From: an uncultured Actinomycetes bacterium
GTDB taxonomy: Bacteria; Actinomycetota; Thermoleophilia; Gaiellales; JALYLC01
Direction: 5' to 3'
DNA length: 64,000 bases
Assembly: GCA_963713435.1 (NCBI GenBank)
Contig: CAVQLU010000007.1
Coordinates: 601,960-665,959 of the forward strand
Below, one piece after another: positions 1 through 20,824 of this stretch; the stretch's first letter is position 1; each line of letters starts with the position of its first letter. The position numbers and the translations under genes were made by a program. The notes beneath the pieces were generated by a model. The model did not search any database and was not told where the DNA came from. It was given only the letters and a program-made list of their open reading frames with translations.

Positions 1-1168
1 CGCGAGCACCTCGCTGCCGTCGTCGCCCTGCCACACGAGCGTGTGGTGCTCGGGCCGGTTGAAGCGGTTCCAGGAGAGCTTCTGGGTGAGGAAGCGCGTG
101 ATGCCGGCCTCGCGCAGGATCTGCGGCAGCTGCCCCGCGTAGCCGAAGGCGTCCGGGCTCCAGAACTCGCGATGGCGCCGCCCGAACTCGCGCTCGAACC
201 AGCGCTGGCCGTACAGGAACTGGCGCGCGAGCGACTCGCCCGAGGGCAGGTTGCAGTCGGGCTCGACCCAGCTGCCGCCGACGGGGACGAACTGCCCCCG
301 CTCGACGGCGGCGCGGATCCGCTGCCAGAGATCGGGATTGCGCTCCTTGATCCAGGCGTACTGCTGGGCCTGCGAGCAGGCGAAGCGGTACTCGGGGTAG
401 TCCTCCATGTAGCGGAGCTGCGAGCTGAAGCTGCGCTGCATCTTGCGGTAGGTCTCGGCCAGCGGCCACAGCCAGGCGGTGTCGATGTGCGCATGCCCGA
501 TCGCCGCGAGCTCGTGCGCGTGCGAGGCGCGATGCGGTGCTCGTAGGAGCGCGGCCAGGATGGCCGGATCGCCCTCGTTGCAGAAGCGGTTCAGCTCCTC
601 GCGCAGCAGGCCCGACCAGGCCTCGTCGCGCGTCTCGACCTCGAGCGCGCGGAGCGTCTCGAAGTCGAAGTAGCGCTGTTGCGCCTCGGGATCGAAGAGT
701 GCGATGTCGCAGCGCTTCAGCTCGGGCGGCGCGTCCTGGGCGCCGAACATCCCGTTGCAGGCGAGCTCGATCTGCAGCTCGAGCGGCCCGGGCTCTGCAC
801 TCCGCGGCCAGCACGGCGTCGGGCCGCTCGCCGTCGCCGCCCGTGTTCAGCCCCTGCAGGATGCGGCCGTCGCGCCAGAGCGCCGCCTCGCACTGCGAGA
901 CGAAGAGCAGGTCGACGCGACGCCCGCGCCACTCCTCCGGCACGGTCGCGCGAACGCGGAACCAGTACGTCGCCCAGAGCGGCCCGAAGCGCTCGCCCAG
1001 CACGGCGGGCCGGTAGTCGAGCGCCTGCGCCTCCTCCCAGGAGATGCGGTCGACCGCCGCGCTCACGAGCACGTCGTCGGCGGGGCGCGATTCTGCATAG
1101 ATGCGCTCGCGCATGCGCTCCGAGATCTGCTCGAGCCGCTCGCGCGTGTAGCCGAGGTGGCGGATCAC
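1..1168 (-). pseudogene. GH38 alpha-mannosidase, N-terminal part. The gene runs off the window at position 1, and there is one frame switch near 790-800.
   Basis: Reverse-strand translation gives WATYWFRVRATVPEEW, then HAHIDTAWLWP, GGSWVEPDCNLPSGESL and FWSPDAFGY, which are GH38 catalytic-domain signatures. The GTG at 1168 overlaps the stop of the upstream GNAT (GTGA). It is absent from the ORF track because it has no stop inside the window. Confidence 0.8.
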
Positions 1169-1658
1169 GAGGGGAGTCCCGGGTTCGCGAGCACCACCGA
1201 GGTCTCGATCTGCCGCTCGGGGATATCCCAGTAGGTCTTCAGCAGGCGCGTCTTCTGCTCGGGCGTCACCAGCTCGAAGCCGTTGCGCCGGTAGAAGGCG
1301 ATCGCCCACTCGGCGGCCGCCCAGGTACCGACCAGCATGCGCCCCTCCGTCAGCTCCCGCAGGTGCGTCGAGCAGCGCGCCGCCGATGCCGCCGCCCTGG
1401 CGGCCGGGTCGCACGTAGGCGTGGCGGATGAGGTCGGCGTCGCCGACGCGCTGGATGCCCATCACGCCGATCAGCTCGCCGGCCGACTCGTAGCCCCAGA
1501 ACGCGACGCCGCTCGCGAGCTCGCCGTCGAGCTCCTCGGCGCCCATGTACGGCTCGTGCCAGCGATCGGCGGGGATCACGCCGCGGTAGGCCTCGGCGGC
1601 GGCGTTGATGATCTCGAGGACGGCCTCGCGCTCGTCGTCGCGGCACGGGCCGGATCAC
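1165..1658 (-). pseudogene. GNAT family N-acetyltransferase with two frame switches (about 1645 and about 1375).
   Basis: Blocks read VIRP / CRDDEREAVLEIINAAAEAYRGVIP ... IRHAYVRPGRQGGGIGGALL (acetyl-CoA motif RxxGxG), then HLRELTEGRMLVGTWAAAEWAIAFYRRNGFELV in another frame. Start and stop both overlap neighbours as GTGA. Confidence 0.75.
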
Positions 1659-2520
1659 GAGGAGCCCGCCATCACGCTCGTGATGCGCCGGTTGAGGAAC
1701 AGCGCGAGCAGGGCGGGCGGCAGCAGGGCGAGCACGCCGGCGGCCGCCAGGATCGGGTAGTTCGTCGTGTACTTGCCCACGTATTCGGTGATCAGCACGG
1801 TCACGGGCTTCGAGTTCGAGGTCGAGGTCAGGAGCAGCGGGATCAGGAACTCGCCCCAGACCGACAGCGCAACGATGGCAGCGACGGCGGCGATCGCCGA
1901 GCCCATCTGCGGCACGACGACGCGCAGGAACGCCTGCCAGCGCCGGCAGCCGTCGACCAGCGCGGCCTCCTCCGGCCCGGTGTCCATCTCGCGCACGTGG
2001 TTGTAGAGGAGCCAGGTCGCGAGCGGCGAGAGCGTCGCCAGGAAGACGAGCGTGAGGCCGCGCTTGGTGTCGATCAGGTGCAGGTCGGCCATGACCTGGA
2101 AGAGCGTCACGGCGACCACGAAGACCGGCACGAGCATCGTCGCGAGCACGGCGTAGAAGAGCGTCCGCCCGAGCCGGAAGCGCAGGCGGCCGAAGGCGTA
2201 CGCGGCCATCGTGGAGACGATCAGGATGAGGGCGGTCGCCATGGCCGCGACCTCGGTGCTCACCAGCATCGCGTGGCTGAAGACGCCTGCCTCGGTCACG
2301 GTGCCGCCCGCGCGCGCCGCCGCTCGTGCCCAGCAGGAGCTGCCGGTAGGCCTCCGTCGTCAGCTCGTGCGGCACCCAGCGCGCGGGCACCGCGCGCACG
2401 TCCTTCTGGCTCGAGAGGCTCGTGACGACCCCGATCACGATCGGGCCGAGCGACCAGGCCACGATCCAGAGGATCGAGACGCCACTTGACGATGCGCCCG
2501 GCGAGCGTCGGATCGTTCAC
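1655..2520 (-). pseudogene. Carbohydrate ABC transporter permease (CUT1, MalG-like) with two frame switches in the first 250 nt.
   Basis: VNDPTLAGRIVKWRL / SILWIVAWSLGPIVIGVVTSLSSQKD... / then the 214-aa ORF 1655..2299, which carries the EAA loop (PEEAALVDGCRRWQAFLRVVVP) and TM segments. Confidence 0.8.
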
Positions 2521-3399
2521 TCTCGTCGACCTCCGCAGGCCGATCACGTAGAACGTCCCGAGCACGGCCGTCGCGCCGGCGAGCAGGAACGCGAGCGCCG
2601 TGCCGTGCGCGAAGTCGGCCTCGACGAACGTGGTCGTGTAGACCTGGATCAGGATCGAGCGCGTGTTGAGCGCCGTGCCGTTGAGCACGTAGACCTCGTC
2701 GAAGATCGCGATCGCGAGCAGCGTGCCGATCGTCAGCGCGACGGCCATCGAGGGCCGCAGCAGCGGCAGCGTGATGTAGCGGAACTGGCGCCAGCCGCCC
2801 GCGCCGTCCACCGACGAGGCGTTGTAGAGCTCCTCCGGGATGCTCTGCAGGCCCGCCAGGAAGATCAGGCTGACCAGCGGCAGCACGCCCCAGACGTGCA
2901 CGATCGTGACGAACGCGATCGCCCAGCGGCCGCCCGCGAGCCAGACGTGCGGCTCGTTGATCAGGTGCAGGTGGATCAGGAGGCTGTTGAGCAGGCCGTT
3001 GTCGGGGTCGAAGACGCGCTTCCAGAGCACGCCGCTGACCACCGACGGCAGCGCCCAGGGCAGCACCAGGATCGCGAGCACGATGCCGCGCCCCGGGAAG
3101 ATGCGGCGCAGCGTGACCGCGATGAAGACGCCGAGCACGAGCTCCAGCGAGACCGCCAGCAGCACGTATTCGAACGTGTGCCGGATGGCGTCGATCGCCG
3201 TCGGGTCGTCGATGACCTGCCGGTAGTTGCGCAGGCCGACGTAGCGCTGCGGCTGGCCGAACTGGCCCGACGACATGACGCTCGTCTGGAAGCCCTTGAC
3301 GAGCGGGTAGACGATCAGCCCGCCGACCGCGACCACGGCCGGCAGCACCATCAGCAGTCCGAGTGCAGCCGACTCGTGGGCGCGGAACCAGCCCCTCAC
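2517..3399 (-). CDS. Carbohydrate ABC transporter permease (CUT1, MalF-like).
   Basis: The first roughly 295 aa of ORF 2296..3399 show six TM-like stretches and an EAA-type loop (ELYNASSVDGAGGWRQFRYITLPLLRP). The expected stop (TGA at 2517-2519, GTGA overlap with the next gene) is out of frame, so a late indel is likely. Confidence 0.8.
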
Positions 3400-3417
3400 G
3401 CGTTCAGAGGCAGACGG

Positions 3418-4727
3418 TCATGTGCCGGCGTGGATCATGCGCTGGCGTGCGTCTGTGGCCTTCTGCGCGAGCTGGTTGAGGGCGTCCGAGACGCTCATCT
3501 GGCCCTTCACCGCCGCGTTGAGCAGGCCCTGCGCGTCGGAGCTGAACTGCGAGTACCAGACCGGCGCGCCCTGCGGGAAGAGCGGCTTGACGACCTTCAG
3601 CTGCTGCGCCGAGCACCGGGCCGCCGGCCAGCTGGCCCGAGCCCGCGAGCTGCTTGATGACCGAGGCGCCGCAGGGCAGGTTGCCTTCCTTCTTGTAGAT
3701 CGGATCGCGTTGGCCGGCTTCTGCCACCACTCGATGAAGGCGGCCGCGGCGGCCTTGTGCTTGGCCGTGACCGGGATCGAGAGACCCTCGGGCAGGCCGA
3801 ACGACGCGTTCGGGCCGGTGGCGCCCGGCACGAGCGCGGCCGCCGCCGGAGCCGGCGATGCTCGACTCCTTCGGGTCGTTCGCCGTCACGAGGTTGCCGG
3901 GGCCGGTCGCGAGCACGATGGCGGTCTGGCCGGCGGTGAACTTGTCGAAGGCGGCGGCGTCGTCGAGCGAGACGGCGCCGGGCGAGACCCAGCCCTTCTT
4001 GACGGCCAGGGCCTCCCACTGCAGCGCCTTGTAGCCGGCCGAGCCGGGCTGCTGGAAGGTCGGCTTGAAGTTCTTGTCGAACAGCTGGCCGCCGTTGGCG
4101 AGCGTCAGCAGGTACCACGGCGTGACGCCGCCCTCGGTCGCCGCCATGGGGATCGAGAGCGGGTACTTGACGCCCGAGGCCTTGAGCTTCTCGGCGGCCT
4201 GCGCCGAGCCCGGCGAGCGTGGTCGGGAACTTCTTGATGCCCGCCTTGGCGAACATCTTCTTGTTGTAGATCGAGATGCGGAAGTCGTTGGAGAAGCAGG
4301 CCGCGTAGGTCTTGCCGCCCGACTTGAAGGCCGCGCCCGTGCTCGCGAGGTCCTTCAGCAGCGGCGCCGGGAGCAGCCCCTCGAGCGGCTCGACCCACTT
4401 GGCGCCGGCGAACTGGCCCGTGAACGACCAGTCGAACTCGGCCACGTCGGCGATGTAGGTGCGCGCGGTGTTGGCGACGACGAGCTTGGAGTGCGTCGCG
4501 TCCCAGCCGGTCACGACGTAGTTGACCTTGACGCCGGTCGCCTTCGTGAACGCCGCGATGACCTCGGGCGGAATCCGGTAGGGCACGAGCACGGTGATCG
4601 TCTGGCCGCGGATGTCCTCGCGGGCCCTCGTGTCCTTCGCGCCGGCGGTCGTGCCGCCGGTCACGGCGAGTACCGCGAGAACCGCCATCGCCGCCATCGC
4701 CGCCAAGCGACGCTGCAACCTGTTCAT
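3418..4727 (-). pseudogene. Extracellular solute-binding protein of the sugar ABC transporter, with about four frame switches.
   Basis: An ATG at 4727 follows GGAGGAAG. A signal peptide MNRLQRRLAAMAAMAVLAVLAVTGG is present. Conserved SBP blocks alternate between the frames of ORFs 3597..4985, 3404..4147 and 3418..3831. Confidence 0.8.
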
Positions 4728-4800
4728 TCTTCCTCCGCGCACACGCCTCTGCGAGCTCGTCGCAGGAGCCGCTGGGGTTGGTCCTGCTCGCTCGACGATT

Positions 4801-6776
4801 GTGGGTGGCGATACTACGAGAGCCTTGGAGGGAATACAACGGAACGGACCCGGCGTCCACCCGCTCGATCCGCTGACGGCGACGGAAGTCGCCGCGGTGT
4901 CGTCGATCGTGCGCTCGCACGCGGAGTTCGCAGCGCTCAGCGAGCGCACGCGCTTCATCTCCATCAGCCTGCGCGAGCCGCTCAAGGCTGACGTGCTGGC
5001 CTGGGCGGCCGGCGGCGAGGCCCCGCCCCGCGAGGCCGAGGTGGTGATCCTCGACCAGGGCGCCCAGGCGACGGTCGAGGCGCTGGTCGCGCTCGAGCCC
5101 GCCGCCGTGACCTCCTGGCGTGCGGCGGACCGACATCCAGCCGATGGCGGTCATCTCGGAGCTGATGGAGGCCGAGGAGCTCGTGCGGCTCCACCCCGAG
5201 TTCCAGGCAGCGATGGCGCGGCGCGGCATCACCGACTTCGACGCCATCCAGGTCGACGCCTGGCCCGCCGGGCACTTCGGCGCCGCGGAGGAGGACGGCC
5301 GGCGGCTCTCGCGCTGCGTCGCGTTCATCAAGCCGCACCCCGGCGACAGCGAGTGGGCGCGCCCGGTCGACGGCCTGATCGCCCTCGTCGACCTCAACCG
5401 GCTCGAGGTGCTGCGCGTCGACGACCACGGCGTCGTGCCGATCCCGGCCGAGAGCGGCAACTACGACGCGGCGGCCGGCGCGCCGCTGCGCGACGACATC
5501 GCGCCGCTCGAGATCACGCAGCCCGACGGGCCGGGCTTCGCGCTCGACGGCCGCGTGCTGTCGTGGCAGCGCTGGCAGGTGCACGTCGGCTTCACGCCGC
5601 GCGAGGGCCTCGTGCTCAACCAGGTCGCCTACGAGGACGACGGCCGGCTGCGCTCGATCCTCTACCGCGCCTCGCTCTCGGAGATGGTCGTGCCCTACGG
5701 CGATCCGAGCCCGAGCCACTACTGGAAGAACGCCTTCGACGGCGGCGAGAACGGCGTCGGCATCGCCGCCTCGCCGCTCACGCGCGGCTGCGACTGCCTG
5801 GGCGAGATCGTCTACCTCGACGCCGTCGTCTCGGACGCAGCGGGCGATCCGCTGCCCATCCCGAACGCGATCTGCATCCACGAGGAGGACGCCGGCGTGC
5901 TCTGGCGGCACATCGAGTGGCGCGACGGCTCGGGCGAGGTGCGGCGCTCGCGCAGGCTCGTCATCTCGTCGTTCTCGGCCATCGGGAACTACGACTACGG
6001 CTTCTTCTGGTACCTCTACCAGGACGGCACGATCGCCTTCGAGGTCAAGCTCACGGGCGTGCTCTCGACCGGCGCGGTGGCGCCGGGCGAGCGGCCGGCG
6101 CACGGCACGCTGGTCGCTCCCGGGCTCAACGCGATGGTGCACCAGCACTTCTTCAACATGCGCCTCGATCTCGACATCGACGGCCAGGCGAACGGCGTCG
6201 ACGAGGTCTGGACCGAGTCGCTGCCGCCGGGTCCCGGCAATCCCGTACGGCAACGCCTTCAGCCCGCGCCGGCGGCGGCTCGCGAGCGAGCTCGAGGCGC
6301 GGCGCCGGGTCGACACCGCCTCGGCGCGCTGGTGGGAGATCGTCAATCCGTCGATCCTCCACCGCCTCGGCGAGCCGATCGGCTACCGCCTCCTGCCGGG
6401 CGAGACGACGTTCGCCTTCGCGCAGCCCGACGCTCCCGTGAGCAAGCGCGCCGGCTTCATCCGCGAGCACCTGTGGGTCACGCCCTACCGGCCCGACGAG
6501 CGCTACGCCGCCGGCGAGTACCCGAACATGCACCCCGGCGGCGCCGGCCTGCCCGAGTGGACGAGCGCCGACCGGCCGATCGACGGCGAGGACGTCGTCG
6601 TCTGGTACACGTTCGGCCACCATCACGTCCCGCGGCCCGAGGACTGGCCGATCATGCCGGTCACGACCGCCGGCTTCCTGCTCAAGCCGGTCGGCTTCTT
6701 CGAGCGCAATCCGTCGCTCGACGTGCCGCCCTCCACGCCACATTCGGATCACTGCCAACCCGGGAGCAGCACGTGA
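4801..6776 (+). pseudogene. Copper-containing primary amine oxidase (TPQ cofactor). Frame switches lie near 5110 and 6245, and the start is uncertain.
   Basis: It is collinear with Arthrobacter-type amine oxidase. Matching blocks include the TPQ consensus SAIGNYDYGFFWYLY, VVPYGDPSP, the His ligands HQHFFNMRLD, and the C-terminal block HLWVTPYRPDERYAAGEYPN...WPIMPV (ORF 6438..6776). Confidence 0.85.
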
Positions 6777-7488
6777 GCACAGTCGAGGGGCGCGTCGCGC
6801 TCATCACGGGAGCCAGCAGCGGCATCGGCGCCGCGACCGCCGCGTCGCTCGCCGCGCAGGGCGCGAAGGTCGCGCTGGCCTCGCGCCGCGGCAGCGACGA
6901 GGGCATCGCCGGAGCGCTCGCGCGCTCCTGCGACGTGCGCGACCCGCAGCAGATCGAGCAGCTGGTGGCCGAGACCGTCGAGCGCTTCGGAGGCCTCGAC
7001 ATCGTCGTCGCGAACGCCGGCGTCGGCGCCTACGGCGACTTCCTCGACATCTCGCCCGAGCACCTCGAGGAGATGATCGACGTCAACGTGAAGGGCCTGC
7101 ATGTACACGGTGCGGGCCTGCCTGCCGCACCTGCTTGCAGAGCTCTGCGGCCGATCTCGTCCTGGTCGCCTCGATCGCAGGGCAGCGCGCGCCCGAGGGC
7201 GAGTCCGTGTACGCGGCGTCCAAGTTCGCGCAGGTCGGGTTCATGCGCTCGCTCGACCACGAGCTGCACCGGCGCGGCGTGCGCTGCTCGACGATCGCCC
7301 CCGGCGGCGTCTGGACCGAGTTCGCCATGGGCGAGGGCCGCGGGCGCACGCCCGAGGACGCCGACCTGCCGGGGATGATGCGCGCCCAGGAGATCGCCGA
7401 CGCCGTCGTGCACGCCGTCACGCGGCCGCGCACGCATCGCGTGCTGGAGGCGACGATCCTGCCCATGAGCGACGACTCGATGAACTGA
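6773..7488 (+). pseudogene. Short-chain dehydrogenase/reductase with two frame switches (7095-7140).
   Basis: TGASSGIGAATA (TGxxxGxG), NAGV and YAASK (YxxxK). The GTG overlaps the amine oxidase stop (GTGA). Confidence 0.8.
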
Positions 7489-7502
7489 AGCGAGAGGAAT
7501 CG

Positions 7503-8838
7503 ATGGGACCGAAGGTCACGATCATCGGCGGGGGCAGCAGCAGCTTCGTGCCGGTGCTGATCCGCCGCCTCATGCAGTCCGAGGCGCTCGAGGCTGCGCG
7601 GGTCTCGCTCATGGACATCGACGAGGGCCGACTGGGCGTGATGCAGGCGCTCGCCGACAAGCTGATCGCGAGCGAAGGCAGCGACATCCGGGTCACGAGC
7701 ACGCTCGATCAGCGCGAGGCGCTCGTGGGCGCCGACTTCGTGATCGCGGCGATCGCCGAGGGCGGCATGGACGCCTGGGCCAACGACCTCGAGATCCCGG
7801 GCCGCTACGGCATCGTCATGCACGTCGGCGACTCGATCGGGCCGGGCGGGATCATGCGCGCCTTCCGCAACGCGCCGGCGCTGGCGCAGGTCGCCCGCAA
7901 CGCGGCCGAGGTCGCGCCCGAACGCCTACATCTTCAACTACACGAACCCGGCGCCGATCGAGGCGCTCGCCATGCGCACCGCCGCCCCGGGCGTGAAGTC
8001 GTTCGGGCTCTGCTCCTGCGCCGCGCACGCCAGCAGCCGCGAGTGGCTGGCGAGCCAGGCGGGCGTCAAGCCCGAGGAGATCGCGATGCCGCCCGTCGTC
8101 GCGGGGATCAACCACTGCGCGTCGATCCAGTCGCTGCGGCTGCTGGACGGCACCGACGCCATGCCGCGCGTGCTGGCGCGCGCGACCCAGCCGGTCGTCA
8201 AGTGGGCGCTCGAGACCTACGGCGTGCTGCCCTACTGCTGGACGCACTGGACGGAGTTCTTCCCGCAGATGCAGCGGCTCGAGGAGCCCTACTCGGGCAC
8301 GGCCCAGGGCGTGAAGATGCGCTACGGCATCAGACGCACGACATGGACTACGAGCGCGCCCGCGTGGCCGGGACTCGAGGGCCTCGCCGCGGCCTGGACG
8401 GCGCCCGGCGCCGACCCGATCACGCTCGCCGACCTGCCCGTCGGCGACGAGGACGAGGGCATCGAGGTGATCGACATCATCGAGTCCATCGTGACCAACG
8501 GCAACATCACGCGCGTCGTGATCGCGCCCAACAACGGCGCGATCCCGAACCTGCCCGACGCCGCGATCGTCGAGGTCAACGCGCAGATCAACGCCTACGG
8601 CGTGCGGCCGATCCACACCGGGCCGCTGCCCGAGGCGCTGGCGGCCCACCTGCGCCACTACGTCAGCTTCCAGCAGCACGTCGTCAAGGCCGCGCTCTCG
8701 GGCGATCGCAAGGCGGCGCTGCACGCGTTCCTGCTGGATCCGACGACGCAGTCGCACCTCGACCTCGACCAGACGCAGGCGCTGCTCGACGAGATGCTCG
8801 AGGCGAACAGGCAGTACCTGCCGCTCTTCGAGCGCTAG
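7503..8838 (+). pseudogene. GH4 family NAD/Mn-dependent glycosidase. There is a frame switch near 7920 and possibly a short excursion near 8335.
   Basis: MGPKVTIIGGGSSSFVP is an N-terminal Rossmann motif. FNYTNPAP, GLCSC and the C-terminal half (ORF 7972..8838) follow. GAGAGGAA lies upstream of the ATG. Confidence 0.75.
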
Positions 8839-8847
8839 CCTGGCGCG

Positions 8848-10414: not shown

Positions 10415-10436
10415 CGACCACGCTTTGAGTGCACAA

Positions 10437-10683: not shown

Positions 10684-10691
10684 ATGTTCGG

Positions 10692-12055
10692 TCAGGAGGG
10701 GTCGATGTTGTGGTTGTGGTGGAAGACGTTTTCCGGGTCGTAGCGGCGTTTGGCGGCCAGGAGGCGTTCGTAGTTCGGGCCGTAGGCTGCCTTGACGGCG
10801 TTCGAGTCCTGGTCGTCGCCGAGGTAGTTCAGCCAGCGCCGCTCGCGAGGTGGGGTCGCAGGGCTGCGTGCGCCTCTTGCGTCCACCTGATGTTCTCGTC
10901 GGTCGCGGCCGGATCCATCCAGACGGACGGGATCAGGAAGTTCCAGCCCTCCTCGCGGTGCGGCACGGCCGTTGCGCTCACGGGGATGCGCGTGACCGCT
11001 CCGTGGAAGTGCTCCAGCAGCATCACCGTCATCGGGGAGGGCACCGTCGCGAAGTGCTCGGCCATGGCGTCGATCAGCCCGTCCGTCAGGCCGCTCGTGA
11101 AGCTCGAGAGCCAGTAGTTGAGCGCTCCCTTCGGATAGCCGGCGTCGAGCAGCGTGTTCATCACCGGGTAGGGCATCGGGCCGACCTGCACCGCCGCCGG
11201 CGAGCCCCAGCCCACGAACGGCGCCAGATCGCGCTCCGCCTGCTCGGGTGTGCCCGTGTGGAAGACGACCATCGCGGCCAGCTTCATCCCCGAGCCGTCC
11301 GGCGCGTGAACCAGCCCGGCGAAGACGGTCAGGTCGTCCGAGGCGCCGGCGACTGCGTCGCGGTAGAAGCGGAGCATCTCGGGCCCGCGCGTCGATCGGA
11401 TGGGCGATCAGGCCGCCGGTGACCATGCCCACGGGCTGCAGGCGGTAGGTGAAGGTCGTCACCACGCCGAAATTGCCGCCCCCGCCGCAGAGTGCCCAGA
11501 ACAGATCGGGATCGGAAGCCTCGGTGACGTCGCGCACCTCGCCCTCCGCGTCGACGAGCTCGAAGGCCAGCAGGTTGTCGGCGGCCAGGCCGTACTTGGC
11601 CATCAGCCAGCCGAGACCCCCGCCGAGCGTCAGCCCGGCGATGCCGGTCGTCGAGATCGCGCCACCGGTGACCGCCATGCCGTGCGCGGCGGTCGCATCG
11701 TTGAGCTCGCCCCAGCTGAGACCGCCCTCCGCTCGCACCGTGCGGGCCGACGGCATCGACCTCGATGCCCTTCATCTCGGCCAGGTCGATCATCGACGCC
11801 GCCCTCGGCGACGGCGCGCCCGGCCACGTTGTGGCCGCCGCCGCGGACGGAGATGTCGAGCCCGGCGGCCCGCGCGAAGCGCACGCCGGCCGACACGTCG
11901 GCAGCGTTCCTGCAGCGGATGATCACCGCGGGCGAGCGGTCGACGAGGCCGTTGTGCACGCGGCGCGCGTCGTCGAATGCGTCGTCCCCGGGGCGCAACA
12001 CGCGCCCGGACACCTGGCCGGCCAGGTCGTCGAGGAGTGCGGGGTCAGGAGACAT
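10692..12055 (-). pseudogene. FAD-linked oxidase with BBE-like C-terminus, with about four frame switches.
   Basis: VRGGGHNVAG (FAD_binding_4), GIAGLTLGGGLGWL and NYERLLAAKRRYDPENVFHHNHNI (BBE tail). The pieces lie in ORFs 11630..12055, 11329..11793, 10692..11756 and 10829..11377. Confidence 0.8.
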
Positions 12056-12167
12056 GGCGGACGTACCTCCGACTCTGCCGCGCCGTTATCGACACGGCGG
12101 CTGCGAGTCTAAGGCGTGCGCGCAGGAGGCGCGCGAGGGTCGGGAGCGCGACGAGCGACGTCGCGGC

Positions 12168-13771
12168 TCAGCCGAGGCGGACGTCGAGCAGGAGCGGCTC
12201 CGAGCGCGAGCGCAGCCCCGGCAGCACCTCGCCGAGCGTCGCCAGAAGCTCGTCGTGCGTGACGATGCGGCGCGACGGGCAGCCCATGCCCGCCGCCACG
12301 GTCGAGAGGTCGAGCGACTCGAAACCCGGCCAGGCGCCGGGAGCGCCGTGCGCACTCGCGAGCTGATCCATGACGGCGTAGCGCCCGTTGCCCATGATCA
12401 CGAAGACCACGCCGACGCCGTAGCGCGCCGCGCTCCAGAGCGCCTGGATCGAGTACGTCGACGAGCCGTCGCCGAGCAGCGCGAGCACGGGCCGATCGGG
12501 CAGCGCCATGCGCAGGCCGATCGAGGCCGGCGAGGCCGAAGCCGAGGGCGCCGTTGGCGACCGCGACGAAGCCGAGCGGCGCGCGCGTCGCGATGCGGGC
12601 GAGGATCTCGGGCCGGGCAGACGGCGCCTCCTCGACGAGGATCGCGTCCTCGGGCAGGCCCGCCGCGAGCGCGGCGATGACGTGTTCCGTGCGCAGCGGC
12701 TCGCCGGCCCCGGGCGGCGCCGGTGCGAGCGGGCCGCTCGAGCGCCGGGACCGCTCCGCTGCGCTGCGGCAGACTCGGCCGCGAGCGCCGAGCAGACCGT
12801 CGCCGGCGCCGCCAGCAGCGCGAGGTCGCACTGGCTCCGCAACACGTCGTCCGGGTCGTCGCCCACGACGGCGACGCGCGTCGTCGCCTCGACCAGCGAG
12901 GCCCGGGTCGTACATGGTAGAGCCGGAAGGCGGGCGTGCCGATGGCGAGCACGAGGTCGTGGCCCGCGAACAGCGCGCGCAGTTCGCTCCGCCGCCACGG
13001 CAGGTGCCCGGCGAACAGCCGGTGGTTCTCCGGGAAGCCGTGGCGACTCGAGAACGTGTCCTGCCAGACCGGGCACTCGAGGCGCTCGGCCAGCGCCACG
13101 ACCGCCGCCCAGCCCTCGGGCGTATCGGCGCCGGCGCCGACGACGAGCGCCGGGGACGACGAGGCGCGCGAACAGCGCGGCGAGCTCCGCCACCGCCGAG
13201 TCGTCCACCGCGGAGGAGGTCAGCAGGCGCGCAGGCGCCGCCGGGCCGGCCCACTCGTCGCCGAGCGGCTCCTCCCAGTCCCCCATGGGGACGACGACGA
13301 GCGCCGGGCCGCGGCGCACGGTCGCCTCGTGCCAGGCGCGGGCGATGGCGCCGGGCACCTCGGAGGCGTGCGCGGGCAGCGTCGACCAGACCGGATAGTC
13401 GCCGGCCAGGCGCTCCAGGTTGCGCCCCGTGAGGAACGGGCCCGAGCGCGAGCTGGCGGCGATCCTGCTGACCGACGACGATCACGAGCGGCACCCGGTT
13501 GTCGCGCGCGCAGACGATCGCGTTGACGGCATTGCCGAGCCCGGCGGCGGTGTGCAGGTTGACGAAGGCCGGCCGCCCCGTGCCGAGCGCGTAGCCGCTG
13601 GCCATGCCGACGACGGCGCCCTCGTGCAGACCCGAGCACGAACTCGAGGTCGTCGGGGAAGTCGGTCAGGAACGGGATCTCGGTCGATCCCGGATTGCCG
13701 AACACGCGCGTCATGCCGAGCCGGCGCATGAGCGCGAACGTCTCGTCCCGGACCGTGGAAGGCGAGCTCAT
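12168..13771 (-). pseudogene. Thiamine-diphosphate enzyme, benzoylformate decarboxylase-like, with about six frame switches.
   Basis: It is collinear with MdlC-type proteins. Matching blocks are VFGNPGSTEIPFL, AFVNLHTAAGLGNA, and the TPP motif LLGDGSSTYSIQALWSAARYGVGVVFVIMGNGRY. Confidence 0.8.
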
Positions 13772-13819
13772 GCCCGCCGTTGTAGCAACGGCCACGCCGC
13801 TGGGCGCCGCCTGCCGTGC

Positions 13820-14415
13820 CTATGCACCCTGCAGCCAGCCGGCTCCGCGCGCGTACAGGGCCTCGACCTCCGGCCCTTCGAGACCCGGCATGTCCGGCTT
13901 GACGTCGTAGCCGACCTGCGTCTGGAGATAGGCGAGATGCCGGTAGCCCTCGGGAAAGCGCGCGAGCAGCGCGGGATCGAGCGCCACCCGGGCGCGAGGG
14001 ATCGACCGGGTCGAGCCGGTCCTTCTCGTAGATCGGCTGTCGCAGCACGAGGCCCCAGCGGCCGTCCCGCCGCTCGAAGAAGTCGTAGAAGCGACCGGTG
14101 CAGACGACGTCGCAGAGGGCGCCGTGCACGTCGGCGCGCTGCGAGATCGTCATCTTGGTCTGGCTCACCGCGCGCTCGCCCGACACGTCGATCGAGCTGC
14201 CGCCGAGGAAGTGCAGGATGCGCACGCCGCGCGCCCAGCCCTGCTGGTTGGCCTCGATGAAGCCGTCGGCGCTGCCCTGGAACCACGTGGCCATCATGCG
14301 GCCGTCGTCGTGCCAGACGGTGCGCAGCCGCTCCCAGTCGCCGCGCGTCGCGCCAGAGCGCCCAGGACTCGACGAGCTCGCGGATCTCGCTGCGGGACTC
14401 GGAGTCGCCTGCCAT
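13820..14415 (-). pseudogene. SnoaL-like / NTF2-fold protein with two frame switches.
   Basis: MAGDSESRSEIRELVESWALWRDA, then GDWERLRTVWHDDGRMMATWFQG...GRFYDFFERRDGRWGL, then the tail ...GYDVKPDMPGLEG... ending at TAG 13820. Confidence 0.6.
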
Positions 14416-14635
14416 GGACGCGAGCCTAACCGCCCAGGTATCCGGCCTGGCGAACACGAGTGCCCGCCAGGCCCGGAGAACCATTCGTACGCGCTGTGCC
14501 TAGGTGTTCGTCGCCTTGCGACGACTGGCCAGCCAGCGGTCGAGCGTCTCACGAAGTCGCGCGAACATTCGCGCCCCCTTTGGGTAGGCCTCGAGTCTAT
14601 GTCCATACCGGCCGCGCCGCGGACCGGCGGGAGAC

Positions 14636-14855
14636 TCAGTCCGTGCGGTACGCGTAGCCGCGCGAGGTCAGCTCGTGGCAGCGCACGGCGGGGCAGTCCG
14701 CCGCCCGCCGGCTTCTCGCAGAGCTTGACGAACATGAAGCCATCCGCGCCCAGGCGATCCCAGACGGGGTCATCGGCGAGCGGCGTCGGCATGCGCCGCT
14801 GCAGCCCGCGAAGCGCGGCGAGCTCGGCCGGCGTCAGTCCGTCGGGGTTCACCAC
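14636..14855 (-). CDS. Small Cys-containing hypothetical protein of about 73 aa. It needs one frame switch near 14700.
   Basis: VNPDGLTPAELAALRGLQRRMPTPLADDPVWDRLGADGFMFVKLCEKPAGG, then ADCPAVRCHELTSRGYAYRTD*. No family was recognised. Confidence 0.3.
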
Positions 14856-14936
14856 GCAGCCAGCCTACGCCGATCTCAGCCCCGGCCTGCGCCTCCCGCC
14901 CTCCCGGACCGGCCGTCCAGTAGCATCGCGCACCAC

Positions 14937-15860
14937 ATGGCGAACGTCGTACGAGGCGACCAGCCCACCACTCCCGACGAGCTCACCGCAGCCGCGGCCG
15001 CGAGCTTCGACGGCGTGCAGCGACGAGCGGCTGCGCACGATCATGCAGGCCTTCGTGCGCCACCTGCACGCGTTCGCGAGCGAGGTCGGGCTGACGCAGG
15101 AGGAGTGGATGACGGCGATCGGCATCCTCACCGCGACGGGTCACATCACCGACGAGCGGCGCCAGGAGTTCATCCTCTGGTCGGACACGCTCGGGCTCTC
15201 GATGCTCGTCGACGCGCTCGCGCACCCGGCGCCCGCGCCGGCCGACCGAGTCGACGGTGCTCGGGCCGTTCTACGTACCCGGGTCGGCGCTGCGCGAATA
15301 CGGCGAGAACATCGCCGGCGAGCCCGCAGGCGAGCCCGCCTGGGTGCACGGGCGCGTGCTCGACCTCGACGGGCGGCCGATCGCCGATGCCGAGCTCGAC
15401 GTCTGGCAGAACGGCGTCGACCAGCTGTACGCGGTGCAGCGGCCCGAGGCGCCCGAGGATCACCTCCGCGGCCGCTTCCGCACGCGCCCCGACGGCAGCT
15501 TCGCGTTCCTCGCGGTGCGCCCGGTTCCGTACACGATTCCCGACGACGGCCCGGTGGGCTCGATGCTCGCCGCGACCGGCCGTCACCCCTGGCGCCCCGC
15601 GCACATCCACGTGATCGTGCGCGCGCCCGGCTATCGCACCGTCGCGACGCACATCTTCGACTCCGCCAGCGCCTACCTCGACTCGGACGCGGTGTTCGCG
15701 GTCAAGCAGTCGCTCCTGCGCGAGTTCGTCGCGCTTCCGCCAGACGATCCCGCCCGGCCCGAGGGCATCGAGGGCGATCTGCTGGACCGTCGAGACCGAC
15801 TTCGTCATCGTGCCCGACAGCCAGGCCGGCGAGCCCGTCGACCCGGGACGCACCGCATGA
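14937..15860 (+). pseudogene. Intradiol ring-cleavage dioxygenase (hydroxyquinol/catechol 1,2-dioxygenase type) with three frame switches.
   Basis: The N-terminal helical domain reads RLRTIMQAFVRHLHAFASEVGLTQEEW. The catalytic blocks read LGPFYVPGS and GRHPWRPAHIHVIV. The pieces lie in ORFs 14937.., 14098.. and 15257... Confidence 0.8.
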
Positions 15861-15881
15861 ATCCAACCCGGAGGTAGCGCC

Positions 15882-17419
15882 ATGACGCCTGCGCGTCCAA
15901 TCAACCGCGACGAGTACTTGGACAGCCTGCGGGACGGTCGCGAGGTCTGGATCCACGGCGAGAGGGTCGACGACGTGACGGCGCATCCGGCCTTCCGGAA
16001 CAGCGCGCGCAGCGTCGCCCGGCTCTACGACGCCCTGCACGATCCGGCGCACAAGGACGTGCTCACGGTCGAGACCGACACGGGCAACGGCGGCTTCACG
16101 CACCCCTTCTTCCGGGCGCCGACCTCGGCCGAGGATCTCGTGCGCGGGCGCGACGCGATCGCCGCCTGGCAGCGCCATGACATACGGCTGGATGGGCCGG
16201 ACGCCCCGACTACAAGGCGGCCTTCCTCGCCACCTACGGGCCGAACGCCGACTACTACGCGCCGTACCACGAGAACGCCGCCCGCTGGTACCGCGAGGCC
16301 CAGGAGCGCGTGCTCTTCATGAACCACACGCTCGTGAATCCGCCCGTCGACCGCAACAAGGACATCCACGAGGTCGACGACGTCTTCATCCACGCCGTCA
16401 AGGAGACGGACGAGGGCGTCGTCGTGCGCGGCGCCAAGATGGTCGCCACGGGCTCGGCCATCTCGAACTACAACTTCGTCTCCTACCACGGCGCCCTGCC
16501 GATCAAGAAGAGCGAGTACGCGCTCTCGTTCTTCGCGCCGATGAACCTCAAGGGCACGAAGCTGATCTGCCGCCCGTCCTACGAGTACATGGCGGCGACG
16601 ATCGGGAGCCCGTTCGACTACCCGCTCTCGAGCCGCTTCGACGAGAACGACGCGGTGCTCGTGTTCGAGGACGCGCTGATCCCGTGGGAGAACTTCCTGA
16701 TCTACGGGAACCTCGAGATCGCCAGCACCTACCACCTGACCGGCTTCATCTGGCGGGCGCTGCTGCAGGGCTGCACGCGGCTCGCGGTCAAGCTCGACTT
16801 CCTGGCCGGCCTCTTCATCAAGATGGTCGAGGCCACGGGAACGCTCGAGTTCCGCGGCATCCAGGCCTCCGTCGGCGAGATCCTCGCGTGGCGCAACATG
16901 TTCTGGTCGCTCACGGACGCGATGTGCCACAACCCCGTGCCGTCGGCCAACGGCTCGGTGCTGCCGAACATCGAGGCCGCCTCCGCCTATCGCGTGCTCT
17001 CCAACCAGGCCTATCCGGCGATCAAGGCGATCATCGAGAACCAGACCGGCGGCGCGCTGATCGCGCACCCGTCGAGCTCGCTCGACTGGAAGGACGAGGA
17101 GCTCCGTCCGCTGCTCGACCAGTTCTACCGCGGCTCGGCCGGATACTCCGCGGTCGACAAGATCAAGCTCGTCAAGCTGCTCTGGGACGCGATCGGCAGC
17201 GAGTTCGGCGGCCGGCACGAGCTGTACGAGCGCTCGTACTCGGGCAGCCACGAGCTGACCAAGCTCGAGTGCTACCTGATGGCCAACGGCGACGGCACGG
17301 TCGACCGGCTCAAGGGCTTCGCCGAGCAGTGCATGCAGGAGTACGACCTCGACGGCTGGACGGTGCCGGACATGATCGGCAACGACGACGTCCGCATCAT
17401 CGGCAAGCGCAAGGGGTAG
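15882..17419 (+). pseudogene. HpaB-family (4-hydroxyphenylacetate 3-monooxygenase-like) flavin-dependent aromatic monooxygenase, oxygenase component. Two frame switches lie at 16175-16205.
   Basis: GGAGGT lies 7 nt upstream of the ATG. MTPARPINRDEYLDSLRDGREVWIHGERV... and the 369-aa ORF 16310..17419 show typical HpaB N- and C-domain sequence. Confidence 0.85.
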
Positions 17420-20098
17420 CGCTCGTTCCGCGCTTCAGCGCGGCACCGCGAACCAGGCCTTCGCGCACGGCCACGGCCGCTGCTTCGCCGCGCGTGCGCG
17501 CCTCGAGCTTGCGCAGGAGCGCCGAGACGTGGTGGTCGACCGTCCGCCGCGAGACCACGAGGCGCTCGGCGATCTCGGCGTTCCGCTTGCCTTCCGCCAG
17601 GAGCGCGAGCACCTCGAGCTCGCGCGCGGTGAGATGCGCGGGGTTCTGCCGCGCGGCGCTGTTCGGCCCGCGCGGAACGTGCCGGACGCCGCGCTCGCGC
17701 AGCCGTGCGTGACGGCCGCGGCGGCCGCGCGGGCCCCGATGCGCTGCAGCTCCACCACCCCGCGCCGCGCTGCGTCGTCATCGTCGGCGTGCGCACAGCG
17801 CGAGCGCCGCCTCGTAGGGGCAGCTCGGCCTCGCTCCAGAGCTGCGCGGCGCGCTCCCAGTCGCCGGCGAACGCGCGCCGCATCGGCGCCGACCGCGCCC
17901 GGGACGTCATCTGCAGGCCGGCGCGGCGGCGCCAGCGGGCGAGCGCGCCGGCCTCGCGCCAGGCACTGACGCGCGACGGCGCGCTCGAACGGCGCGCCGG
18001 TCAGGCCGGCGATCAGTTCGGGCTGCCCCTGCAGCCAGGCCGACTCGGCGCGCGCCACGGCCACCATGTCCGTCACATGCACGAGCTCCTGCTGCGCGGC
18101 GCGGTCGGCGGCGCGCTCCAGCAGCTCGTTCGGCCCCTCGTTGCCCTGCCTCGCATCTGCCAGGGCGGCGACGACGAGCGCGTTCAGCGAGGGGATGACC
18201 GACGGGCCCGGATCGTGCAGGACGATCGCGGCGGCATTGCTCGCCTCGCCCCAGCGAGCGCGATCGAGCGCGCCGGGCGCCGGCCGCATACAGGTAGCGG
18301 GCGTAGATCTCGAGGTCGCGCTCGCCGCAGAACGCGAGGCCGGCCTGCGACGTAGGCGATCGACGTGGCGGAATGCGCATGGTGCCGCAGTCGCGACATG
18401 GGCCGCGCGCACCCAGATCGAGCACGCCTCCGCGTCGTAGCCCGCCTGCCAGCGCGGATCCGAGCACCTCCTCGAGCGGGCGCCGGCCTTCCTCGCTGGC
18501 GTCCCGGTAGGCGCGCTGCGACGCGACCTCGAGACGAGCCCGTAGCTGCATCTGCGCTGGTCGCCGAGCTGCTCGGCCAGCAGCCCCGGCGCGCGTCGCC
18601 AAGCGCGATGGCGTCGTCGGTGTGCTCCGCGACGATGGCGAGGTTCAGGTAGGCGAGCGCGGCCTCGCGTCCCGGCGCGAGACCCTCGAGCGCCTCCAGC
18701 GCATCGAGGCTCGCGCGCTTCGACGCCGCGAGCCGCCCTGGGCACCAGATCAGTCTCGGCGAGCGCACACAGCGCAGCTGCCTCGCGGCGACGATCGCCG
18801 AGTGCCCGGTAGCACTCGAGCGCGCGCTCCTGGGCGGCCACGGCGTCGTCGATCCGGTTCGTGAGATAGCACTCCTGGGCGTGCAGCTCGAGCAGCGCGG
18901 CCAGCTCGGCCGGCGGCAAGCCGCCCGCGAACCGCAGGGCGCGCTCGTACTGGGCGGCGGCCTCGCGGTGCGACCCCTGCGCCGCGGCGCGGGCCGCGGC
19001 CGCCGTGGCGTACTCGAGTGCCGCCGCGGCATCGCCCGCCGCGTCCGCGTGATGCGCGAGCTGCGCCAGGTCCGAGGGCGCGCCTTCCGGCGGGGCGCGC
19101 AGCGCTTCGAGCACGTGCCGGTGCAGGACAGCGCGCCGGTGCGGCCCGATCGACTGCTCGACCGCGAGGCGCGCCAGCTCGTGGCGGAACGACACCGTGC
19201 GGCCCTCGCCCTGCAGCATGCCGGCCTCCAGGCACGCGTCCACCTGCTCGACGCCGTCCCCCAGAACCTCATCCAGCAGCCAGATCTCCGCGCGGGGCGG
19301 CACGACCGCCACCGCTTCGAGTGCAGCCTGAGCAGAGGCGCCGAGCCGGCTCATGCGGCCGAGCACCGCGTCGCGAACCGTCGGCGGGACATCCGTGCCG
19401 CCTCCGGCGAGCACCTCGGTGACGAAGAACGGATTGCCGCAGGTCTTGACGTAGAGCTCCTCGGCATCCAACCCGTGCGAGCCCGCCAGCTGCTGCACGG
19501 CGGCGCGCGACAGCGGAGGCAGGCGCAGCTGCGTCACACCCGGCGCGGTGCCGAGCTCGCCGACCGCGAGGCGCACCGGGTGCGTGGCCGCGAGCTCGCT
19601 GTCCCGGTAGGTCACGACGACCAGCGCGCCCAGCGTCTCGGCGCGCCGGGCGAGCAGCCGCATGACATCGAGCGTCGCCTCATCGGCCCAGTGGAGATCC
19701 TCGATCACGGCGATCGTCGGTGAAGACTCCCGAAGCTCATCGACCAGGGCGACGAAGACCGCGTGCGGCTTCTCGCTCGCGCAGGCCGCGGCCAGCACAT
19801 CGCCTCGCGCCATCGCCGCGATGTCGGTCAGCGGGCCCAGGGGCCGTGGCGTCTGGAGCGCATCGCAGGCGCCCCAGAGCACGCGTGCGCTCGCATGGTG
19901 CGCGTCGCAGAAGTGCCGCACCAGAGTGCTCTTGCCGATTCCGGCCTCGCCCGAGACCAGCACGAGGCGACCGCCGCCGTCCTCCACGGCGGCCAGGGCG
20001 GCGTCCAGGGCCTCGGCGAACTCGGCGCGCTCGAGCAGGGCCGATCCGGCCTCGGCGCGCTCTCGCGCCTGAGCGGCGACGTGCCTCATGACCGGCAT
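17397..20098 (-). pseudogene. LAL-type (large ATP-binding LuxR family) transcriptional regulator with eight or more frame switches.
   Basis: Walker A VSGEAGIGKST and IEDLHWADEATLD, TPR-like repeats, and a C-terminal LuxR HTH LTARELEVLALLAEGKRNAEIAERLVVSRRTVDHHVSALLRKL (ORF 17397..17612). Confidence 0.8.
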
Positions 20099-20125
20099 CG
20101 TGCGCCGCTCGGCGAGCGAAATCAA

Positions 20126-20180
20126 GCCCCGCCTCGTGCGCGGGGCGATGGCCGCGAGCGGGGCGCCGGGCGCCCCGCTC
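20126..20180 (-). terminator. Two GC hairpins directly downstream of the 20194 stop.
   Basis: GCCCCGC-7nt-GCGGGGC lies at 20126-20146. A perfect 11-bp stem GAGCGGGGCGC-cgg-GCGCCCCGCTC lies at 20156-20180. There is no U-tract. Confidence 0.5.
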
Positions 20181-20193
20181 GCGTGAGTCGCAC

Positions 20194-20824
20194 TCAGTTG
20201 AACGCGTGCACGAGCGGATTCATGCTCGCGTACATGCCGGCCGGGTTCGGGTACCAGATCCAGACGTGCATGGTCACGAGCGCCGGATGCCAGAAGTTGA
20301 ACGCCGCACCCGACTGCGGGCTGGTCGTCGGGCAGGTGTCCTGGCTGGCCTCGGGAACGAACGTGCCGTCCTTGTAGTGGCAGGCCGCCGGGAAGGCGCC
20401 GTACGTCGCGCCCTTGAGCGGGGGCGTCGCCGGCTTCTTCGGGAAGACCCACTCGAGCGCGCCGAGCTGCCACTTCCCCCCGTGCTTCTCGTACACGAGG
20501 ATCGGCGGCTTGCTGACGTCGAAGCCCTTGACCGCCGGATTGATGAAGTGGTAGCCCATGCCGGCGATCTGCTGGGTGAGGATGCCGTACCCCGCCGCCT
20601 TGGCCGCGCCGAGGTCGTTGGAGTACTTGGCCGTGGCCAGGCGGGCGCGCGCGAGCTGCGCCGCCGGCAGGTCGGGGGCGGCCGCGTGACCGGCCATCGG
20701 CATGTCCATGCCCGCGGGCCATGCTCGCGCCCTGATGATGCTGGGTGCTCTTGACGGCCGCTCCCGCGACCGCCGCCCCCGTGAGGATCACGGCCATCGC
20801 CGCGATCATTCCGATGATTCGCAT
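20194..20824 (-). pseudogene. Secreted protein of unknown function with a His/Met-rich N-terminal motif, and one frame switch near 20712.
   Basis: AAGGAG lies upstream of the ATG at 20824. The signal peptide is MRIIGMIAAMAVILTGAAVAGAA. It is followed by HHQGASMA..MDMPMAGH and then the 171-aa ORF 20194..20709. Confidence 0.6.

Follow-up and report, generated by a model that had tools for sequence, protein, structure and literature searches.

Dense single-base frame disruptions in a Thermoleophilia-type soil contig and their probable origin in consensus error

Introduction

In the window, the 64,000-nt stretch of DNA analyzed here, nearly every gene within the first 20,824 nt (the left block) changes reading frame at least once, while the genes beyond approximately 21 kb are largely read through. 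The locus therefore raises the question of whether these disruptions are lesions in the DNA of the organism or errors in the deposited sequence. Four related contigs from ENA soil metagenomes (L081/L085, L082, L083, and L084) served as comparators.

Frame disruption on either side of 21 kb

Ab initio codon-usage Viterbi analysis divided positions 1-20,818 into approximately 60 short coding segments and the remainder of the window into segments of roughly 1 kb. With junctions classed by stop and start context, approximately 32 intragenic frame switches fall in 1-20,824, as compared with two to three in the remaining 43 kb (binomial P = 5e-13), bearing out the jump in disruption density that the original prediction had placed at about 20.8-21.0 kb. 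Within the left block, the stitched segments yield stop-free proteins, and Pfam domains continue over the junctions.

Alignment to the relatives resolved these switches into at least 59 robust private indels of 1-2 nt, nearly all of a single nucleotide, within the 18.8 kb to which relatives align, at 3.1 per kb, of which 49 are insertions and 10 are deletions; approximately three more, near 790, 1366, and 8940, come from Viterbi or Pfam evidence alone. The high density first described thus stands, but the total of roughly 40 or more was too low. Some apparent −1 switches are in fact pairs of close +1 insertions (e.g., 7101 with 7135, and 16175 with 16202). The features of the left block are as follows:

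1-20824, unstranded: indel-dense zone, approximately 3 private single-base indels per kb (Viterbi, junction classes, alignments to L081, L082, L083, and L084); may extend past the left edge of the window
1-1171, minus strand: 5' part of a GH38 alpha-mannosidase that continues past the window edge; a single frame switch at approximately 783-800, beyond coverage by relatives, with Pfam Ams1-like_1st crossing the junction
1174-1642, minus strand: GNAT acetyltransferase, not in L081; frame switch at 1366/1367, crossed by Acetyltransf_7
1658-3399, minus strand: two ABC sugar-transport permeases, with bases inserted at 2318, 2480, and 2521 (tblastn with L081 proteins and gap list); permease 1 (2521-3399) reads through uninterrupted
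3454-4727, minus strand: extracellular solute-binding protein; events at 3452, 3610, 3703 (deletion), 3847, and 4203, with SBP_bac_1 crossing junctions
4783-6773, plus strand: copper amine oxidase; insertions at 5119 and 6242, with positions 2-407 of 407 of the Cu_amine_oxid profile matched over a junction
6773-7485, plus strand: short-chain dehydrogenase; insertions of A at 7101 and T at 7135, spaced 34 nt
7503-8835, plus strand: family 4 glycosyl hydrolase, with insertions at 7921 and 8373 and a deletion at 8332
8842-9611, plus strand: SAM methyltransferase, not in L081; probable frame switch at approximately 8940, less certain, as it comes from Viterbi alone with no Pfam domain over the site
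9617-10414, plus strand: DapB-like reductase, the sole undamaged gene of the left block (single tblastn HSP, 265/265 residues, 93% identity)
10695-12055, minus strand: FAD/BBE oxidase; events at 10846 (deletion), 11388, approximately 11746, and approximately 11798
12171-13795, minus strand: thiamine-pyrophosphate enzyme, benzoylformate decarboxylase-like; eight private insertions (12522, 12726, 12775, 12896, 12915, 13166, 13437, 13634), called against L081, L082, and L084; once stitched, 97-100% of its length aligns to intact homologues of 517-534 aa
13826-14855, minus strand: SnoaL-like protein and a 72-aa ORF; insertions at 13993, 14343, and approximately 14692
14937-15875, plus strand: catechol-type intradiol dioxygenase; insertions at 15014, 15244, and 15777, with another just upstream at 14879
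15882-17419, plus strand: 4-hydroxyphenylacetate 3-hydroxylase (HpaB); insertions at 16175 and 16202, the other 1.2 kb being free of insertions
17454-20134, minus strand: LAL/LuxR-type regulator (AAA_16 and GerE); approximately 16-20 events, all within 17449-18754 (four-way alignment); N-terminal 475 codons (18743-20167) clean
20197-20824, minus strand: secreted 209-aa protein; last private insertion of the left block, at 20714-20720

The gene order of all four relatives matches that of the window, including over the boundary, and in the clean relatives L081 and L083 every gene is intact. L082 (approximately 98-99% identical adjoining the left block) and L084 (approximately 95%) lack every one of the window's insertions. 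In a five-way alignment, the window carries 32 private single-column insertions and two deletions at 11.2-20.8 kb, versus no insertions and one deletion at 21.1-29.8 kb; over the same columns, L081 and L083 each have zero to one private single-base indels. L084, about equally diverged from the window on either side of the boundary, gives 39 small insertions at 11.2-20.8 kb and three at 21.1-30.0 kb (P = 1e-8), and none of those three is an isolated intragenic change. Indel density is thus not similar on the two sides, and alignment to relatives identified no gene-breaking private indels at 21-30 kb.

Error patches appear elsewhere in the other assemblies, in L082 at 11-16 kb and 25-30 kb and in L084 in the LAL gene and a cyclase regulator. 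Three related contigs (contig_8184, contig_81433, and contig_28253) belong to one sample (ERZ25039488), where related strains thus occur together. Further comparators were sought with several queries. Searching genome contigs with HpaB matched Thermoleophilia/Gaiellales MAGs, in which synteny was limited to the dioxygenase-HpaB pair and was of little use for indel mapping; the plasmid collection returned distant HpaB matches and nothing closer. A concatenated HAD and carbamate kinase query for the right flank of a relative recovered only homologues at 74-81%, and the members of the thiamine-pyrophosphate enzyme cluster included none that could serve as another comparator over the far-left 9.5 kb.

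Substitution pattern and gene integrity

Once indels are removed, no premature stop occurs in 6,051 aligned codons, in keeping with the earlier observation that in-frame stops are absent; amino acid identity is 91%, and the same codons hold 1,098 synonymous versus 525 non-synonymous differences. Taken together, these values speak strongly against natural decay. Third codon positions hold 64-80% of differences, and the substitution pattern indicates that the left-block genes are otherwise under purifying selection. The proposed comparison of indels with substitutions and nonsense mutations in orthologues accordingly gives a left block with many private indels, no nonsense, and mostly synonymous change.

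These data bear on the possibility that the indels are real, such that a strain-variable catabolic island of 20 kb was recently inactivated by dozens of +1 insertions. Gene content does vary among the relatives (L082 lacks HpaB, a GT2 gene occurs in L081 alone, and the methyltransferase and GNAT genes occur in the window alone), so the locus could be dispensable. However, the third-position bias and the absence of stops speak against inactivation, as do the near-absence of private single-base indels from the same genes of L081 and L083 and the lack of any of the insertions in the nearest relatives, L082 and L084. Additionally, bacterial indel mutation favors deletions and simple repeats, the opposite of the insertion-rich, homopolymer-avoiding spectrum of the window. 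Real inactivation is therefore very improbable, and the block of simultaneously inactivated catabolic genes that the original prediction had offered as its alternative is not supported. Programmed ribosomal frameshifting was also considered and rejected, as the shift site is not conserved: in L081, L083, and L084, each orthologue is encoded by one continuous ORF.

Spectrum of the insertions

Insertions outnumber deletions 49:10 (P = 3e-7). The inserted base is identical to a neighbor in only 10 of 48 cases, as compared with an expected 45-53% (P = 5e-4); the claim that indels are not limited to homopolymers thus holds in a stronger form, the insertions being depleted there. A comparison of homopolymer spectra between the two sides of the window revealed no difference.

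Of 32 testable private insertions, 24 add the allele carried by a relative at the adjacent polymorphic column, where chance predicts 4.0 +/- 1.9 (3,000 simulations, maximum 12). An earlier version of this test with three relatives gave 16/31 versus 3.6 +/- 1.8. Both-alleles testing covers 11.2-20.8 kb; the far-left 9.5 kb has a single relative. At 17822, for example, AGCT in the window is AGC (L081, L083) merged with GCT (L082); at 18754 the window reads GT against G or T in relatives, and at 18581 it reads CA against C or A. The consensus here holds both alleles of a SNP in tandem, a pair X/Y becoming XY. The private insertions of L082 itself are of this type in 9 of 34 cases, significantly fewer than in the window (Fisher P = 2e-4). 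Consensus errors of this tandem both-alleles kind were also sought in the literature, and no published account of them was found.

Substitutions follow a different pattern in the two assemblies. Singletons number 10 and 8 in the window versus 65 and 57 in L082, and where the two differ, the window allele is mostly common to other relatives. Such a scarcity of private substitutions is expected if majority alleles win. At the end of the L082 contig, by comparison, substitutions are even by codon position (80/70/72) and accompany 46 insertion and 30 deletion columns.

The predominance of both-alleles insertions, together with the avoidance of homopolymers, suggests that reads of diverged haplotypes were collapsed during polishing. 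We consider it probable (roughly 0.6), judging from these alignments, that the left block is a stretch of a long-read metagenome contig that was polished with reads of at least two co-occurring haplotypes, diverged by a few percent, and that this produced the consensus errors. The haplotypes could be strains or two copies of a variable catabolic locus. Reads over the left block would then be a mixture of haplotypes, and the right side would have been built from one. If missing bases incur little penalty in long-read error models, a consensus carrying two alleles may outscore either allele, at the cost of one additional base; this polisher route is our own reasoning, for which no published source was found.

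Two observations count against such a mixture. All four relatives remain homologous to the window through the decarboxylase and, with gaps, further, and a mixture does not account for errors that stop at 18.8-20.8 kb. Additionally, the stretch most divergent from L082 (10.75-12 kb) has few events, so that density does not simply track divergence; the idea that insertions follow divergence from L082 holds only in part.

A different technical origin is possible, though we consider it unlikely: the left block may be low-depth or unpolished, for instance because very few long reads (perhaps only one) underlie it or because the polisher passed over it, and so retain ordinary read errors. An indel rate of approximately 0.3% fits weakly polished long-read sequence, a single long read would span about 20 kb, and L082 demonstrates that low-quality patches occur in such contigs. 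The MFD paper reports that low-coverage MAGs lose coding density through errors (PMC12313526), and R10.4 consensus requires approximately 40-fold coverage (PMC9262707). However, random errors should yield substitutions and many deletions, as at the end of L082, while the window has almost no singletons and an insertion excess of 5:1; nor would they be expected to copy a neighboring allele in 75% of cases. Nanopore consensus errors are, moreover, described as mainly homopolymer-linked (Sereika et al., 2022, PMC9262707), and the insertions of the window avoid homopolymers.

The mixed-haplotype consensus may also be set against a biological reading of the same tandem alleles. If the extra bases were real, a mutational or recombinational process in this lineage would have to insert the allele of a homologous donor copy beside the resident allele, for example where heteroduplexes formed by two diverged island copies are repaired incorrectly, inactivating approximately 17 genes almost at once. 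We know of no mutational process that places an alternative allele beside the resident one, and we regard this as the least probable of the explanations considered.

The boundary region

Four features bear on the boundary and on the sequence to its right:

20825-21063, unstranded: divergent intergenic region at the reported boundary, with two copies of CTACCTATCT, at 21007-21016 and 21030-21039
21064-22962, plus strand: PLP-dependent decarboxylase fused to a cNMP-binding domain, 632 aa; the first long intact gene, with 0 private indels, 99% identical to P0241
40593-40598, minus strand: isolated frameshift, a C inserted at 40598 in a GNAT/ADP-forming acyl-CoA synthetase
46418-46429, plus strand: isolated +1 frameshift in a phosphoketolase, with the XFP domain continuous over the junction

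Of the three suspect sites first proposed on the right side, those at 40.6 kb and 46.42 kb are true frameshifts; the one at 62.49 kb leaves a complete CydB domain, with a 53-residue tail as the sole oddity. The edge itself is softer than the original prediction implied. While the last insertion does lie at 20,714-20,720, in agreement with the last disruption reported near 20712 and the intact ORF from 21064, the dense part already ends at 18,754 and the next 1.96 kb are clean. A search for a tRNA or other landmark at the boundary found none.

An abrupt change in error density along one contig might indicate a chimeric join, in which a left block from another organism or contig was misjoined at approximately 20.8-21.0 kb. 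GC is slightly higher at left (0.70-0.75 versus 0.67-0.73), and divergence from L082 shifts at approximately 18.75 kb, which also suggested a strain switch there. That shift, however, stems from the many singleton differences of L082 itself, and the candidate switch was rejected on this basis. The adjacency over the boundary (LAL regulator, 209-aa protein, decarboxylase) is present in identical order in L081/L085, L082, L083, and L084. Additionally, L084 and the window stay collinear over 11.2-30 kb, and their divergence is even, with 19-77 mismatches per kb both left and right of the boundary. A join to foreign DNA is thus improbable; of the assembly join originally suggested, what survives is a difference in consensus quality between the two sides, although sequence of two strains from one population may have been joined.

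Discussion

Because the indels are private, the clean orthologues are intact, nonsense mutations are absent, and insertions place alleles in tandem, comparison of these sequences indicates that the disruptions almost certainly arose as errors of the deposited consensus and do not reflect damage to the DNA of the organism. Together with the third-position bias, this evidence upholds the initial preference for uneven consensus quality over decay. Read literally, the record would imply approximately 17 false pseudogenes and a wrong catabolic capacity for this Thermoleophilia-type soil bacterium, with the sugar ABC transporter, alpha-mannosidase, copper amine oxidase, benzoylformate-decarboxylase-like enzyme, catechol dioxygenase, HpaB, and LAL regulator among the genes affected. 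Almost certainly an artefact, the left-block disruption is also useful for quality control: error-dense patches in long-read MAGs can be recognized without reads, by indels that are private with respect to close relatives and by inserted bases that copy a neighboring polymorphic allele. The neighboring-allele test separates strain-collapse errors from low-depth errors.

Natural pseudogene-rich regions occur in reducing genomes, such as those of Mycobacterium leprae and recent host-restricted symbionts. The left block resembles them in having many neighboring genes with broken frames. Natural decay, however, is accompanied by nonsense mutations, by deletions large and small, by an increase in non-synonymous change, and by lesions common to related isolates, and the left block displays none of these.

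Another parallel is found in the errors of Nanopore-only genomes and MAGs (PMC9262707; MFD-LR, PMC12313526), in which single-base indels likewise fragment gene calls while protein blocks remain conserved, and which depend on coverage and are uneven among and within MAGs. Contigs of the relatives are named in the style of Flye. Among named genomes, the closest are Nanopore-only MAGs of the MFD-LR catalogue, for which Flye --meta assembly was followed by one round of Medaka (PMC12313526). The left block differs from such errors in its spectrum, with only 10 of 48 insertions beside an identical base, insertions in excess 5:1, and 75% copying the neighboring allele. Flye is also known to collapse close strains into consensus contigs (Strainberry paper, PMC8302730), so that one contig represents a population consensus, much as the left block has very few private substitutions. 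That study describes collapse and loss of identity, as distinct from the tandem insertion of both alleles observed here, from which collapse in the window would follow.

Frame disruption and shape of the boundary

The window has a G+C content of ~71%, and no tRNA genes were found in its 64 kb. The named genomes nearest to it are metagenome-assembled genomes of Thermoleophilia/Gaiellales, many of which come from 'MFD', a Danish long-read survey of soils. Frame disruption was assessed independently of homologues with a seven-state Viterbi model (six coding frames plus non-coding), using codon usage trained on the window itself; same-strand junctions were sorted by the presence or absence of a stop in the upstream frame at the junction. 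Positions 1-20,818 resolved into ~60 short coding segments, and the remainder of the window into segments of ~1 kb. Intragenic frame switches numbered ~32 in the left block (1-20,824), against two clear cases (40.6 and 46.42 kb) and one doubtful case to its right (binomial P = 5e-13). Concatenated, the left segments yield proteins without stops, with Pfam domains continuous over the junctions (SBP_bac_1; Cu_amine_oxid, 2-407 of 407; adh_short; Glyco_hydro_4; three TPP domains; FAD_binding_4/BBE; Dioxygenase_N/C; HpaB_N/C; AAA_16/GerE). The gene list of the original prediction, and its sense that these genes are damaged, were therefore right.

Indels were catalogued by combining pairwise alignments to related ENA soil-metagenome contigs; events were retained if seen against at least two relatives, and isolated events were accepted where there was one relative only, as in the far-left 9.5 kb with its single comparator. 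The 18.8 kb covered contains 59 robust events (48 one-base insertions, 1 two-base insertion, and 10 one-base deletions), with 3 more supported by Viterbi/Pfam only; several seeming -1 shifts resolve into two +1 insertions each. Event density along the left block is uneven:

9617-10414, DapB: no events
12171-13795 (-), thiamine-pyrophosphate (TPP) enzyme: eight events
HpaB, last 1.2 kb: no events
17449-18754, C-terminal half of the LAL/LuxR-type regulator gene (17454-20134, -): ~16-20 events

Beyond 18,754, 1.96 kb is clean and is followed by one insertion at 20,714-20,720, after which alignments to the relatives show no gene-breaking indels as far as 30 kb. With the dense zone ending at 18,754 and this lone insertion following, the abrupt boundary originally placed at ~20.8-21.0 kb therefore does exist, but it is less sharp than described.

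Related contigs across the boundary

The stitched TPP enzyme matches intact homologues of 517-534 aa over 97-100% of its length. Its best match lies on ENA contig_8184 of sample ERZ25039488 (L081, extended as L085), which contains the complete left block with unchanged gene order and all genes intact, and runs on into the decarboxylase gene to the right of the boundary. Querying with the decarboxylase identified three further contigs, L082 (ERZ25039580) and L083 and L084 (both ERZ25039488); L082 is 98-99% identical to the window adjoining the boundary. The order LAL regulator, 209-aa secreted protein, decarboxylase is kept in four of four relatives, and a foreign-DNA join at 20.8-21.0 kb is therefore excluded. 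All relatives are still homologous to the window past 18.8-20.8 kb, where the patch ends.

The comparison of indels on both sides of the boundary, as proposed with the original prediction, was run with L084, which is collinear with the window over 11.2-30 kb and diverges evenly from it (19-77 mismatches per kb, left and right alike). Relative to L084, the window has 39 small insertions to the left of the boundary and 3 to its right (P = 1e-8), and none of the latter is an isolated intragenic change.

Projecting the window onto the L081 reading frames, with indels dropped, gave 6,051 comparable codons. These contain no premature stops, in agreement with the earlier claim that in-frame stops are absent; the one stop that was counted belongs to HpaB itself and comes a few codons early. 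The encoded proteins share 91% of their amino acids, the differing codons comprise 1,098 synonymous and 525 non-synonymous changes, and third codon positions hold 64-80% of the differences from every relative, the right side being alike. In these columns, the clean relatives L081 and L083 have 0-1 single-base indels of their own; such changes are therefore foreign to the normal variation of the clade. Judged from these sequence comparisons, the left-block damage is not decay, and real lesions in the organism's DNA are a very improbable source of it.

Indel and substitution spectrum

Insertions exceed deletions by 49 to 10 (P = 3e-7), and the inserted bases are C (18), G (13), T (9), and A (8). 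The inserted base is identical to a neighbour in 10 of 48 cases, where random insertion would give 45-53% (P = 5e-4), bearing out the remark that the indels are not limited to homopolymers. Private substitutions are few (10 and 8 in the window, 65 and 57 in its nearest relative, L082), and at sites differing from L082 the window allele is nearly always present in another relative. The insertion bias, the deficit of neighbour matches, and the scarcity of private substitutions speak against ordinary error from low depth or homopolymers. How low-depth consensus looks in such data is seen near L082's own contig end, with substitutions even by codon position (80/70/72) and 46 insertion and 30 deletion columns. 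Technical causes other than a mixture of haplotypes are a less likely source of the left-block disruptions.

Consensus quality seems to be commonly uneven in these assemblies. L082 has error patches at ~16700-19628 (window 27.7-30.7 kb) and at 1-6300, with random substitutions and numerous insertions and deletions at its contig end; L084 has them at 6376-9124 and 11886-14537, where the genes for its LAL regulator and cyclase are broken up.

Tandem alleles

In a four-way alignment, the extra bases adjoin polymorphic columns and repeat the other allele, so that both alleles of a neighbouring SNP are written in succession:

17822: window AGCT; relatives AGC or GCT
18754: window GT; relatives G or T
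18581: window CA; relatives C or A
18447: window CT; relatives C or T

The five-way alignment shows this pattern in 24 of 32 private insertions, where random placement gives 4.0 ± 1.9 (maximum 12 in 3,000 simulations); with three relatives, the figures are 16/31 and 3.6 ± 1.8. Among L082's private insertions the pattern occurs in only 9 of 34 (Fisher P = 2e-4 versus the window). The backbone allele is usually as in L084 or L082, and the inserted allele more often as in L081 or L083.

Frameshifts right of the boundary

The original prediction named three suspect sites in the right part, two of which are genuine frameshifts with Pfam domains continuous over the site; at the third, 62.49 kb, the CydB domain is complete.

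40,598 (window 40593-40598), GNAT/ADP-forming acyl-CoA synthetase: inserted C
46,418-46,429, phosphoketolase: +1 shift

Sporadic right-side events represent the background rate of the same record, ~0.05 per kb, and these two isolated shifts are probably consensus errors of the same kind at that rate. In CydB (cytochrome bd subunit II; window 62400-62560), the full Pfam domain is followed by an arginine-/alanine-rich tail of 53 residues, seemingly out of frame, which may reflect a late frameshift or the loss of a stop codon. One base present in both L082 and L084 is missing from the window at 27573, directly before the ATG of a secreted protein of 435 aa without a Pfam match (26268-27572, minus strand); no reading frame is affected, and this may be real variation.

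Decarboxylase neighbourhood and variable gene content

Two genes follow the boundary on the right, tail-to-tail with a 14-nt overlap:

21064-22962 (+), PLP-dependent decarboxylase fused to a C-terminal cNMP-binding domain, 632 aa
22949-26167 (-), 1072-aa protein with zinc ribbon, class III adenylate/guanylate cyclase domain, AAA_16, and TPR

The decarboxylase-cNMP fusion has hundreds of 70-80% homologues in soil metagenomes, and L081/L085 and L083 lack the cyclase gene. The two proteins could form a cyclic-nucleotide producer/sensor pair. The direct repeat (C)TACCTATCT occurs in two copies (21007-21016 and 21030-21039), 23 nt apart and ~25-55 nt upstream of the decarboxylase start; its counterparts lie at L081 646-677, L082 9945-9976, L083 8391-8422, L084 9945-9976, and L085 9903-9934. 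Repeat and spacing are kept in all relatives while the flanking intergenic DNA diverges, and the repeat is a candidate operator or promoter element.

Gene content of the locus differs among close relatives:

1174-1642, GNAT gene: window only
8842-9611, methyltransferase: window only
15882-17419, HpaB: missing in L082
22963-27730, 4.8-kb segment with cyclase regulator and secreted protein: absent from L081 and L083
L081 7974-9938, GT2/PilZ glycosyltransferase, 654 aa: L081 only

Proposed origin

We consider the left-block frame disruptions an artefact (probability about 0.9), and somewhat favour haplotype collapse, with an inferred mixture, as its form. The left block would then represent mixed haplotypes merged into one consensus, with both alleles retained at some SNPs. 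A polisher that works on likelihoods or pileups and is tuned to reads prone to deletions might score both bases above either allele where the mixture is near even; no description of such behaviour was found in the papers searched. An edge to the patch would be accounted for by the collapse of a segment present in two copies, or by a branch point in the assembly graph. The setting fits haplotype collapse because gene content at the locus is variable and other assemblies have error patches of their own elsewhere. It fits also because three related versions of the locus co-occur in a single sample (ERZ25039488), because Flye is known to collapse close strains (PMC8302730), and because the MFD pipeline combines Flye (--meta --nano-hq) with one Medaka round and without short-read polishing (PMC12313526).
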